From NCBI RefSeq assembly GCF_003334305.1, contig NZ_QOWS01000030.1: a stretch of DNA of 41,498 nt; one strand, given 5' to 3'. The notes below the pieces were generated by a model. The model saw nothing but the letters and a program-made list of their open reading frames with translations, did no database searches and was not told the origin of the DNA. Below are positions 10,021 through 15,479 of this stretch, piece by piece (the first letter of the stretch is position 1; every line of letters starts with the position of its first letter). The position numbers were made by a program, and so were the translations under genes. The stretch comes from Escherichia coli (GTDB lineage Bacteria; Pseudomonadota; Gammaproteobacteria; Enterobacterales; Enterobacteriaceae).

Positions 10021-12654
10021 TCAGGCAAGCCGGTAACTGAACGTCCGTGACTGGCCGGGTAAAAAAGGCCCCGATAGATTTGAACCTTGATTTTCCTCGG
10101 TGGTAATGTGTTCATCCATCATCGTTTCTGAGCAAGAAATCACCTCGCGACTGAAAGCAACAGTCGCATCACAGGTTGCTGATTCAGCCGGATTAAACAG
10201 CCGTAAAATCACTTCTTGTCGGTCTTCAGCTTTCTTAAGTGCGCTTATCAGGCATCCCACTGGGGGCATTTTCAACAAACTATAACTTTCCGGCACGTTG
10301 AATCCGGCTTTGTTGAGCTTCATCGCATCCCATGGGATTTTGTTGTAACACTGTACTGGAGTCAGCCATGCTCGCGCCTGCTGAGCTACACCAGCGGCGG
10401 TTGGCGTACCGGTATAACTCAATAAACTTAGGCGACAAGAAAGCAGACCACGTAGTTGTGAGTCCGGGACTGGCATTTTAATTCCCGAAGGCCGCCCAGG
10501 CCTTAAAAACAGATCTTCTTTGCCCAGTAAGCCCACGCCACGCAGCAACGTAATGGCAAAGGTTTTCTTCTCTTCACCGATGACTTCAAATTCACGTAGC
10601 CCTTCGCTAAAGACAGCCATGCCGTTACGCCCTTCCTGTAAGGCTGCATAGTTGAGCATATTCCATACCGGAACCGGCGCTTCTTTCCAGCCTTCTTGCT
10701 GCCAGTTGTTCATTGCACTGTCGTTCACGGGGCGCGTTAGCGAACCAAACTGGGTATCTGCCAGAACACTATCGGTGTTAAAAGATGTAGGGATCAGGAC
10801 GCGAAGGCGATGATCGTCAGCCTGGTTATCAAGGTTGATATCCACATCAATACGTCTGCTGTTATGACTCAGAGTGACAACCATCTCCACCCCTACTCTG
10901 CCCGTGGATTGCCGGACGCTTCGTTCCAACAAATTGAGCGGCACCGCCATGTCATAGCGGATAACAGCCCTGCTCTGCCAGGCCTCATGAGTAATCTCGC
11001 ATTGCGGTTTCGCTGTTGCAGAAGTCATTACCCACTCTTCTTTTGCGGGTGAATAGTCATATTCATCACCATCATCAGAGCTTTCTTCAATTTGCAACAC
11101 CCGGTCATAGCGCACACCGCTATCTTTATCTACCAGTTGTAGCGTTCCATCCTCATTGAGCGCAATTTGCCAGAAAGCATTTTCCAGTATCCCTTCAGCG
11201 TCACTTTTTGCCGCAATCACGTTGCCAGGCTGATTCGCTTCGATATAAAGCGTGCGATAGCCCATAGAAGGGACAATCTGGTTGATCTGTATATCAAACT
11301 CCATAAAGGGATCGTAATTACCGTAATGAACTATTTGCCGATCGATTAGGCCTGGATCGATCTCACGGGCATGGCGAATAAAATACGGTACAGGCTGACC
11401 GCGATCGTCTCGTAGATTAAACTGGCTGGCGCGCAGCCGCACAGTGGTGTTAATAACTTCTTCCCGCGGCCAGGGCATCAGGTTAAACAGCACGAGTTTG
11501 TCGGCATCACTCTGTGGCATGTTATCGGCAATTTTGCGCATGTAGAAACGCAGCAGATTATCCGCCATGTCTTCAGCCAGTTCGAAGCGGGCGACAATTT
11601 CGCGATGAACTTTGTCACTGCAACAACAACCGATACTGTCGTGGGCATGATTTTTTAAGATCTCTTTCCACATTTTCTCCAGCAAGCCGTGGTGGTATTC
11701 AAAACCCAACGTCCAGGCCAGCGTTGCCAGCGGTTCCAGCAGATTAACAATCTTATTTTCAATACGTGCGTGGGCAATTTTGATATCCATGCGCGTGGAA
11801 CCGATGGTGCGATGTACGCGCATATATTTGCCATCGATAAATTCACCTTTCAGGGTGGCCAGACTTTCACGCTGCGCTTCGATCTTCTCAAATACCTCTT
11901 CAAAGCGGCTCATCACAAACTTACGTTGAGGGTAGATCTCACGTAGCTTATCCATCACTTCGAAGATATTTTGCTGCAATGGCATCTGGTCATGCCCATT
12001 CGGCAGCAAAATCTCTTTGGTTACAGACGCTTTTTCCAGCACGTCAAAATAACTGTCGAGGCGTTTACGTAATCCGTTTTCGTCGGCAGGTAAGTACTTA
12101 CCGATGGCGTAGCCCAGCGGCAGCACCTGCGCCGTCACTTCGCTACCGTCACTGCTTTGCCACAAAAACTCGGTTTTATCAGTACCGTGGCGCTCCGAAC
12201 ATCCGCGCCAGAACATGGTGCGGGTAATGCCAAATCCATTGTAGATATGCGGCAGTTGCCCGGACATGCCAAAGGAATCTGGTAAATAACCTATTTTCAT
12301 CGGCTCGCCAAACGCGAGGCAGTCACGCATTCCGTACATCAGATTACGGACGATGGATTCCGCAGAAACAATCGTGGTATCGGTCTGGGTATACCAGGGG
12401 CCGATAATCAACTTGCCGGCTTCTACCTGTTTCTTCACGCGGTCTTTGTTTTCCGGTTTCACCGCGAAATAATCTTCGAGGATCGCCGTTTGCCCGTCGA
12501 GTACGTAATATTTGTATTCGTTGTCCTGTTCCAGTCGGCACAGGATCTCTTCCATATTATTGACCAGCAGAATGCGTGACTCTTCGGTGGTGAAATACCA
12601 CTCCCGATCCCAATGCATATGCGGGGTGATGTGAACGCGAGATACCGCTTTCAT
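10021..12654 (-). CDS. mngB: Mannosylglycerate hydrolase (alpha-mannosidase, GH38), 877 aa
   Basis: ORF 10021..12654 minus; [38 protein letters not shown]... (GH38 N-terminal HxHxDxxW-type motif). Confidence 0.93.
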
Positions 12655-12671: not shown

Positions 12672-14648
12672 TTATGGCATTACGCCATCAGTCAGATAGT
12701 TGCCATGCTTAACCGCGTGACGCCGCCAGATCAGGAGAATTGCAGTCGAGATTGCAGCCCCCACCAATGCCGCACCAAACCAGCCAATTGCCGCCATAAC
12801 ACCGCCCGCGCCATTATCATGAAGTAAAAAGAGCGAGAAAATGCCGGCACCGGGTGTCGAAAGGCCGATATTCATCGCACCGACAATAGCGCCCGTTACC
12901 ATAGAGCCCAGCACAAACGAACCAATAACCCGCAGCGGATCTTCAATCGCCATCGGGATCGCCCCTTCGGTAATACCTGCCAGCCCTAACAGCCAGGTGG
13001 ATTTCCCGGTCTCAATTTCAAACTCTTTAAACAGGCGCGGTGCGAGCATCGTGGAAGCGGTTACGGTAAATGCCGAAACCATTTTGACGGAGGCGAAAAT
13101 GGCATACGGGCCGTAAACGCCGTTCGCCATTGCGCCCAGGCAGAATGCATAAGCGGCTTTGTTCACTGGCCCTCCAAGGTCAAAGGAACACATAAAACCG
13201 AGAATGGCACCCAGCAACAGCGCGTTACTTCCTGACAGACCGTTCAGCCAGGCGGTAAGCGAGTTATTGATCCAGGCGACAGGTTCTCCCACCACAAACA
13301 GCATCAGACTGCCCGCTCCCAACGTACCGAGCACCGGGTAGAGATAAAAAGTCAGGAATCCATTGAATTTACTGCTAAGACGCAAGTGATTTTTCACCCA
13401 GCGCATCAAGTAACCGGCTATCAATCCGCCAACGACCGCGCCGAGAAACCCGGAGCCGATCATGTTGGCGGCAAGTCCAGCCGCAAAGCCTGGCGCTAAC
13501 GCCGGTTTATCTGCCAGAGAATAGGCGGTATAGGCCGCGAGCACCGGTACCATCAAAATTCCGAGCAGCCCGCCGCCCAGCTTGCGGTACATCCACAGCC
13601 AGGAGTTTTCTTCATTAAACAGATCTTGTAGCCCGAAGATTTGCGACAGTAATACCGCGACCGCCAGCACCGTGCCCCCCGCGACAATCAACGGTACGGC
13701 AAAAGAGATTCCGCTCAACAGTGCCTGTTTCAGCTCCGTTTTGACACTTTTCACCGGTTGCGTATCTTGCTGTACGGTACGCGTCTCATCGCTACGCTTG
13801 AGGGTAAGCGCTTGTTGGATCAACGCTTCTGCATGGCGAATCGGCTCGGCAACAGGCACTGAAAGCGCGGGAATGCCATTAAAACGCTCACTCTCCTTGA
13901 TGGCGACTTCAGCCGCAAAAATACAGGCGGTTGCACTATTGAGTTGATCCGCCGTTAAACGCCCTTCAATGCCGTTAGCGCCTTGTTTTTCAACGTAAAC
14001 ATTTACGCCGAGTTTGCGTCCGGCTTTTTCCAGATATTCCGCAGCCATATAGGTGTGAGCAATACCCGCCGGACAGGCCGTTACGCAGACGATAGTTGGC
14101 GCGTTGGAAAAAGAGGCAGAAGGTTGCGTGCCTCCCTTGTCATCCAGCGCCGAGAGCAACTCATCAGGCGTCGTCGCCGACTGTATACGCGCCCGAATCT
14201 CATCATCCGCCAGGCGCGTGGTCAGCGCTGTCAGCAGTTGCATATGCGTAGTACCCGCTTCATTGGGGGGAATCGCCAGCAGCACCACTAAATCAACCGC
14301 TTCCGGGCCATCAACGCCTTCCCACTGAAGCGGCTCGCTGAGTGTGGCGACCGCAAACGCCGCTTCTTTTACCGCAGCAGTTTTGCCATGCGGCACAGCC
14401 AACCCTTCACCTAAGGCGGTCGGGCCAAGGCTTTCACGGCGATACACTTCTTCCAGAAATTGCTCAGTACTGGAAATTTTCCCCAGAGCAGCAAGACGTT
14501 GAGTCAACGCGTGGATGGCCTCTTCACGGCTGGTAAAGCGCGCATTCAGACACAACGCATCGCGGTGGGTCAGAGTCGTCAGATTCATCATGATCCTCAC
14601 TTGATCGTTTTTATAGTCGCGCCAGTGTGCCCGATAAAACAATACCAT
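12672..14648 (-). CDS. mngA: PTS 2-O-alpha-mannosyl-D-glycerate-specific EIIABC component, 658 aa
   Basis: ORF 12672..14648 minus; N-terminal EIIA-like region, EIIB cysteine motif ([17 protein letters not shown]) and fructose-type EIIC membrane domain. Confidence 0.9.
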
Positions 14649-14756
14649 TATGTGATCAATTTCACTTGATTGAAATTATTTGTATTGTATTTGTATTATT
14701 TACAGGATGAATTTATCGGGCATAATGGCTAAATTCGTATTAATGAGATACTAAAA
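14649..14756. promoter_or_regulatory. Divergent mngA/mngR promoter-operator region with direct and inverted repeats
   Basis: Inverted repeat AATTTCA-N6-TGAAATT within tgatcaatttcacttgattgaaatt (14653..14677) and direct repeats tgtattgtatttgtatta (14681..14698); candidate MngR (GntR family) operators. Confidence 0.45.
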
Positions 14757-15479
14757 ATGGGACACAAGCCCTTATACCGGCAGATTGCCGATCGCATTCG
14801 TGAACAAATTGCGCGTGGCGAGCTTAAACCTGGCGATGCGTTACCTACCGAATCGGCATTACAAACAGAGTTTGGCGTCAGCCGGGTTACGGTGCGTCAG
14901 GCTTTGCGCCAGTTAGTCGAGCAACAGATCCTCGAAAGCATTCAGGGCAGCGGGACTTACGTCAAAGAAGAGCGGGTCAATTACGATATTTTTCAGTTAA
15001 CCAGTTTTGATGAAAAACTGTCGGACCGTCACGTCGATACACACAGTGAAGTCCTGATATTTGAAGTGATTCCGGCTGACGATTTTCTTCAGCAACAGCT
15101 ACAAATCACCGCGCAGGATCGTGTGTGGCATGTGAAGCGCGTGCGCTATCGCAAGCAAAAGCCAATGGCGCTGGAAGAAACCTGGATGCCGCTTGCGTTG
15201 TTCCCGGATCTCACCTGGCAGGTCATGGAAAATTCAAAATATCACTTTATTGAAGAAGTGAAGAAAATGGTTATCGATCGTAGCGAACAGGAAATCATTC
15301 CTCTGATGCCAACCGAAGAGATGAGCCGTCTGCTTAATATCAGCCAGACAAAGCCGATTCTTGAAAAAGTATCGCGTGGATATTTAGTTGATGGTCGGGT
15401 GTTTGAATATAGCCGCAACGCTTTTAATACCGATGACTATAAATTTACCCTGATAGCGCAACGAAAATCATCGCGATAA
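14757..15479 (+). CDS. mngR: GntR/HutC-family transcriptional regulator MngR (FarR), 240 aa
   Basis: ORF 14757..15479 plus; MGHKPLYRQIADRIREQIARGELKPGDALPTESALQTEFGVSRVTVRQAL (wHTH GntR N-terminus) plus UTRA effector domain. Confidence 0.93.
   Translation: MGHKPLYRQIADRIREQIARGELKPGDALPTESALQTEFGVSRVTVRQALRQLVEQQILESIQGSGTYVKEERVNYDIFQLTSFDEKLSDRHVDTHSEVLIFEVIPADDFLQQQLQITAQDRVWHVKRVRYRKQKPMALEETWMPLALFPDLTWQVMENSKYHFIEEVKKMVIDRSEQEIIPLMPTEEMSRLLNISQTKPILEKVSRGYLVDGRVFEYSRNAFNTDDYKFTLIAQRKSSR

Follow-up and report, generated by a model that had tools for sequence, protein, structure and literature searches.

The window analysed here, a stretch of 41,498 nt from the Escherichia coli chromosome, carries mngB and mngA on one strand, the divergently transcribed mngR on the other and sucDCBA after mngR (Table 1; all positions are those of the window). 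The mngA-mngR spacer differs from that of K-12 MG1655 by a single base (14729, outside the boxes described below; 201 bases compared), and experimental work on K-12 is therefore directly applicable. MngR, with its GntR winged helix and UTRA domain, belongs to the HutC subfamily and reaches 525 bits against the NCBIfam equivalog for MngR (cut-off 281). FarR was renamed MngR by Sampaio et al. 2004 (J Biol Chem 279:5537), whose genetic data, as cited in later papers, showed that repression is relieved by mannosylglycerate uptake; that MngR represses mngAB and binds the tandem boxes has been shown by others. The region is thus the divergent control region of the mannosylglycerate genes. It was found in 3868 of 5426 complete E. 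coli genomes and is therefore not core; in strain TUM1857, mngR is intact and mngA is annotated as a disrupted pseudogene.

Table 1 Features of the mngB-mngA/mngR locus, with positions in the 41,498-nt window.
Feature	Position	Strand	Sequence	Remarks
mngB	10021-12654	minus
mngA	12672-14648	minus		K-12-annotated start
Probable true mngA start codon	14586-14588	minus		M21 of the K-12 annotation; preceded by GAGG (14598-14595)
Inferred mngA -10 hexamer	14624-14629	minus	CACACT	CACAAT in most species
Box A, inverted MngR-like box	14637-14646	minus	GGTATTGTTT	within the inferred mngA core promoter (about -29 to -20)
CRP-like site	14651-14666 (centre 14658.5)		TGTGATCAATTTCACT, TGTGA-N6-TCACT	predicted class II activator site for mngA at -41.5
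Inverted repeat	14658-14677		AATTTCA-N6-TGAAATT	arms 14658-14664 and 14671-14677, 6-nt loop; very probably a chance feature of the K-12-type allele
R1	14681-14690	plus	TGTATTGTAT	MngR (FarR) box, primary operator (high confidence)
R2	14692-14701	plus	TGTATTATTT	MngR (FarR) box, primary operator (high confidence)
mngR promoter	14699-14726	plus		-35 TTTACA (14699-14704), 16-bp spacer, -10 CATAAT (14721-14726)
Box D, weaker MngR-like box	14736-14745	plus	CGTATTAATG	candidate secondary site, 10 bp past the mngR -10 (about +4 to +13)
mngR	14757-15479	plus		divergent from mngA
Weight matrix match, rank 1	14689-14701			R2
Weight matrix match, rank 2	14678-14690			R1
Weight matrix match, rank 5	14649-14637			box A, inverted
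Weight matrix match, rank 7	14733-14745			box D

The length of the spacer depends on where mngA begins. The 108 bp given in the preliminary description hold with the K-12 annotation, which starts the gene at 14648, 20 codons upstream of the conserved start; with a start at M21 (14588) the spacer is 168 bp. Several observations point to M21: PGAP (NCBI) begins mngA at this codon in other E. coli genomes, the block with the ribosome-binding site and the ATG of M21 is conserved across species, and the 639-position NCBIfam model for MngA, NF007293, aligns with the short form from position 2 to 639. Cross-species MngA similarity begins at residues 2 to 21 of the K-12 annotation, with the N-terminal extension not consistently covered. 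The K-12 mngA start is therefore a likely annotation error, and M21 is probably the true start.

For the footprint, one genome per species was taken, which gave 38 other loci (e.g. from Citrobacter, Kluyvera, Enterobacter, Buttiauxella, Atlantibacter, Serratia and Edwardsiella); counts out of 39 below refer to the window plus these 38 loci. Their MngR proteins are 64-84% identical to the MngR here, and mngA is divergent from mngR in all 38. The alignment resolved into conserved blocks with sharp borders, reading ATT-TGTATT-nn-ATT-TGTATT-(A/G)TTTAC over the tandem boxes and AATAC(A/C)TTTATGTGATCAnTTTCAC over a CRP-like block on the mngA side. The sole non-conserved stretch is formed by the 12-14 bp between the CRP-like block and R1, and it holds the loop and the right arm of the inverted repeat.

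Boxes R1 and R2 together form the segment TGTATTGTAT-T-TGTATTATTT (10 + 1 + 10 = 21 bp, 14681-14701), identical to K-12, in which the conserved unit ATTTGTATTnn returns every 11 bp. TGTATTGTATTTGTATT at 14681-14697 is the sole exact TGTATT-N5-TGTATT in the window. When the 108-bp spacer (75% A+T) was subjected to 5000 dinucleotide-preserving shuffles, only 0.74% of them contained an exact direct repeat of at least 10 nt at a short offset, as formed here by two copies of TATTTGTATT at offset 11, so that the tandem repeat is beyond chance. In the phylogenetic footprint, none of the 38 other enterobacterial species departs from the register of the tandem boxes; R1 reads TGTATT in 33/39 and R2 in 37/39 sequences, and the spacing is always 11 bp.

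The tandem boxes also agree with the published FarR site. Quail, Dempsey and Guest 1994 (FEBS Lett 356:183), as quoted in PMC4494728 and bioRxiv 10.1101/2025.08.21.671446, described the primary FarR site as 21 bp with two imperfect 10-bp direct repeats, TGTATTA(A/T)TT, and this quoted consensus is matched by R2 at 10/10 and by R1 at 8/10 positions. From these later quotations of the 1994 paper, we infer that 14681-14701 is the published site; a literature search with the literal sequence gave a match only to the quotation in Suvorova 2015. In Guharajan 2025, RegulonDB-curated MngR sites placed on a synthetic promoter conferred strong MngR-dependent repression. Compared with the FarR/MngR operator of E. 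coli K-12, which lies at the same locus in a spacer equal but for the one base outside the boxes and likewise has two imperfect 10-bp repeats in 21 bp, there is no difference of substance. We are confident that the HutC-type repressor MngR (FarR) has its known primary operator in R1 and R2, 11 bp (about one helical turn) apart. R2 overlaps the mngR -35, so that bound MngR would block RNA polymerase and autoregulate. The operator has been known since 1994, and the tandem motif is a rediscovery.

An alternative explanation is that no repressor specifically recognises the TGTATT run, which would be just an A+T-rich simple sequence prone to slippage, or a tract of the H-NS or UP-element kind. The spacer has been flagged as H-NS-bound (Shimada 2014), and the 11-bp unit occurs in two or three copies among E. 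coli strains, which would both suit such a tract. We nevertheless consider this scarcely credible: in 74 R1/R2 boxes from other species the core bases T, G, T and T are invariant and the A is kept in 73/74 while the neighbouring bases vary, the 11-bp spacing is fixed, FarR binding has been published (as quoted in PMC4494728 and bioRxiv 10.1101/2025.08.21.671446), and a synthetic promoter comes under repression when given the curated sites.

The preliminary description had proposed the tandem motif as an MngR operator. The assignment itself stands, as the motif matches the published FarR site and is kept in 38 species. The boxes number two, and a reading as three copies of TGTAT was rejected. 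The middle TGTAT copy scores 7.0 with the weight matrix described below, compared to more than 21 for R1 and R2, and it is missing in most species and in a second E. coli allele. The GTATT between the boxes (window 14687-14691) from which the apparent third copy arises is also seen in five loci of scattered lineages, among them Enterobacter ENT03, Atlantibacter, Edwardsiella and E. cloacae DSM 26481; in the majority of species the two boxes are separated by TAATT. Separately, some E. coli do carry three tandem boxes rather than two (95NR1, GN04530 and 2014C-3061), the 11-bp unit being duplicated in the region that corresponds to 14678-14701 of the window. This duplication arose in both E. coli allele backgrounds, one strain having 12 bp extra, and a three-box query was covered to at least 80% in 49 of 3188 genomes.

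A second candidate operator had been proposed in the same spacer, namely the inverted repeat AATTTCA-N6-TGAAATT, and the presence of both strings within 14649-14756 was confirmed. A perfect inverted repeat with arms of at least 7 nt and a loop of at most 12 nt was found in 21% of the shuffles, so the repeat is not above chance. No inverted repeat with arms of at least 7 nt was found in the 38 other loci, where the median best arm is 3. The left arm lies inside the conserved CRP-like site, and the right arm in the freely varying spacer. The second E. coli allele reads ACTTTCACTTACAAGATACT-ATT-TGTATTAAATT-TGTATT; it lacks the inverted repeat and the middle TGTAT but retains both 11-bp-spaced boxes. 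Among complete genomes, 551 have this allele and 3302 the K-12 type. We conclude that the inverted repeat very probably has no function and is a coincidence of the K-12-type allele. A role in RNA was rejected as well: the hairpin is weak (-3.2 kcal/mol as single-stranded DNA, z = -0.8), there is no Rfam match, and the repeat is placed between the two inferred divergent transcription starts.

If both repeats were MngR operators, as in the model of the preliminary description, an MngR dimer on this palindrome would repress mngAB, with the tandem repeats serving autoregulation. The repeat is indeed perfect (7 + 7) and lies between the two genes, most GntR-family regulators bind palindromes (PMC4494728), and an unrelated 6-bp inverted repeat, TTTCGC-N5-GCGAAA, occupies the equivalent place in Superficieibacter. 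We regard the model as very improbable all the same, in view of the chance level of the repeat in an A+T-rich spacer, its absence from other species that have a 64-84% identical MngR and keep the TGTATT boxes, and the 551-genome allele, which destroys the repeat yet leaves mngR and mngA intact. The repeat also has neither a GT...AC core nor a GTATT element, and FarR is documented as a binder of direct repeats (PMC4494728).

Both repeats had further been said to fit the usual half-site structure of GntR/HutC regulators, which was not borne out. The HutC consensus is the palindrome GT-N-TA-N-AC (NyGTMTAKACNy), to which FarR is an exception (PMC4494728), and the spacer 14589-14756 holds no GTNTANAC core; the only two matches in the window are at 39861 and 41279. 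Canonical HutC operators, such as the dre sites of DasR and NagR, resemble the present case in the fold of the regulator (GntR winged helix and UTRA) and in repression of an adjacent sugar-utilisation operon, but their GT-N-TA-N-AC half-sites are missing from both the inverted repeat and the tandem boxes here. A closer likeness is offered by NanR (TGGTATAW repeats) and NagQ (TGGTATT repeats), which have been grouped with FarR as GntR-family exceptions reading direct repeats (PMC4494728): all have short (T)GGTAT(A/T) or TGTATT cores placed head-to-tail without a palindrome. They differ in being other regulators of other subfamilies (NanR is FadR-type) and in repeat number and spacing, with two boxes 11 bp apart here plus inferred single boxes in both orientations.

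A longer inverted repeat of 18 nt (16/18 complementary; 14621-14638 and 14712-14729) joins the two inferred -10 regions, each sense strand reading TTTATCGGGCA(C/T)A(C/A)TGGC. It exceeded all of 300 shuffles; it was set aside as specific to the K-12-type allele, since it falls to 13/18 in the second E. coli allele and is absent in other species.

In a further step, a position weight matrix was built from the 74 R1/R2 boxes of 37 non-redundant other species, E. coli excluded, and both strands of the window were scored (about 83,000 positions). The cross-species consensus of the boxes is ATTTGTATT(t/a)(a/t)(a/t)T. Of the seven top matches in the window, four are clustered in 113 bp of this region, namely R2, R1, an inverted box on the mngA side (box A) and a weaker box on the mngR side (box D; ranks in Table 1). 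The match of rank 3 is a lone strong MngR-like box, ATTTGTATTCGTT, at 12510-12522 on the plus strand, inside codons 45-49 of mngB; it is not found at the equivalent place in other species and was taken as chance. In five loci, from Kluyvera, Enterobacter, Pseudenterobacter and Lelliottia, the mngR leader holds a further box in inverted orientation, which precedes the ATG by about 10 nt; one of these boxes reads TTTTGTATTGTTT and scores 17.8. Box number and orientation thus vary between lineages.

The predicted mngR promoter reached 10/12 matches in the promoter scan and is well kept across species (TTTAC(A/T) in 35/39, CATAAT in 31/39, the 16-bp spacer in 35/39), with R2 overlapping the first three bases of its -35. 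The predicted mngR transcription start is at about 14733 (K-12 765899). The promoter hexamers predicted by Shimada 2014, TTGAAA-18-TATTAT for mngR and TTAATA-19-GATAAA for mngA, differ from those inferred here. The pair TTGAAA-18-TATTAT was also found in our promoter scan, and it was rejected as a conserved mngR promoter since its TTGAAA falls in the variable spacer. The GTATTA element of box D occurs 10-12 bp after the mngR -10 in 24/39 sequences.

On the mngA side, the CRP-like site TGTGATCAATTTCACT matches the CRP core TGTGA-N6-TCACA at 9/10 positions and is the sole match within one mismatch in the 41.5 kb. As about 1.25 such matches are expected by chance per window, the assignment to CRP rests on position and conservation. 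Of the 39 sequences, 33 have an exact TGTGA, 38 keep GTGA and 26 have an exact TCAC. The N6 varies less than it usually does in CRP sites, and this points to an overlapping constraint. The gap between the site and R1 varies (12 to 14 bp), so the site is positioned for mngA and not for mngR. CRP control is the norm for catabolic PTS operons.

Anchored on the CRP-like site and read toward mngA, 40 sequences aligned as AGTGAAAnTGATCACA-TA-AA(T/G)GTATT(G/A)TTT-N7-(C/T/G)AnnnT. The last hexamer has A at its second and T at its sixth position in 40/40 sequences, at a fixed 21 bp from TGTGA, while the distance onward to the start codon varies. This invariant hexamer at a fixed offset would therefore be the mngA -10, which would put the transcription start of mngA at about 14617 (K-12 766015) and the centre of the CRP-like site at -41.5 (class II), with no usable -35; the K-12 start codon at 14648 would then fall upstream of the transcription start. 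Class II CRP-dependent promoters such as galP1 have CRP centred at -41.5 and a poor -35. The predicted mngA promoter resembles them in the 9/10 core match, the fixed 21 bp to a -10 of the TAnnnT type and the lack of a usable -35, and it differs in the predicted repressor box (box A) that lies between the CRP-like site and the -10. An mngA promoter that has no -35 and a -10 at 14629-14624 and is activated by cAMP-CRP at -41.5 is, in our judgement, the probable arrangement.

We also weighed the explanation that TTATGTGATCAnTTTCAC is not a CRP site and is instead the mngA core promoter itself, with the minus-strand CATAAT at 14652-14647 as its -10, or the site of another regulator; box A would then act as a roadblock just downstream of the start. 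Such a reading would account for the CATAA(T/A) conserved inside TTATGTGATCAnTTTCAC and the unusually conserved N6, and it fits with the right half TCAC being exact in only 26/39 sequences. A CRP site is, moreover, not listed at mngA by Shimada 2011, and a literature search for a reported one at mngA, hrsA or b0731 found none, an absence that is no proof of its being undescribed. We hold this explanation to be unlikely, as a -35 for the CATAAT hexamer would fall in the non-conserved spacer, the promoter scan found no minus-strand promoter there, 38/39 sequences retain GTGA in the left half, and the A and T of the downstream hexamer are invariant exactly 21 bp beyond TGTGA in 40/40, in keeping with class II geometry.

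In the favoured CRP-dependent promoter, box A would occupy the spacer upstream of the -10. It reads TGTATT(A/G)TTT in most species, with AATAC(A/C) in 36/39 on the opposite reading, and is TGTATTATTT, the perfect consensus, in many species, C. amalonaticus among them. On balance, although by no wide measure of confidence, we favour a repression of mngA that would be exerted mainly at this third and inverted MngR box within the promoter spacer, perhaps in concert with R1/R2.

The control region might then work as follows. MngR on R1/R2 would occlude the mngR -35 and so autoregulate, with box D perhaps acting as a further roadblock close to the mngR start. MngR on box A would occlude the mngA core promoter and exclude RNA polymerase. 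Uptake of mannosylglycerate would relieve this repression, and CRP would activate mngA in the absence of glucose. Beyond the known operator, we tentatively propose a combined picture, which we put forward as possible rather than probable: a conserved class II CRP site and a third, inverted MngR box in the mngA core promoter, neither of which we found described; a switch of mngA by CRP and box A occlusion, with the tandem boxes mainly autoregulating mngR; an 11-bp unit that expands from two to three copies in some E. coli; and a K-12 mngA start placed upstream of the real transcription start.

With the real operator known since 1994, the weight of these results beyond the tidying of annotation is limited. 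Their useful outcomes are a clear negative on the inverted repeat and a likely correction of the K-12 mngA start. A further outcome is the cross-species map, which indicates a way in which autoregulation, catabolite control and repression of the operon could be united in a single small divergent region. If true, the predicted CRP site and the third box would be modest additions that complete the regulation of a minor sugar-osmolyte operon.
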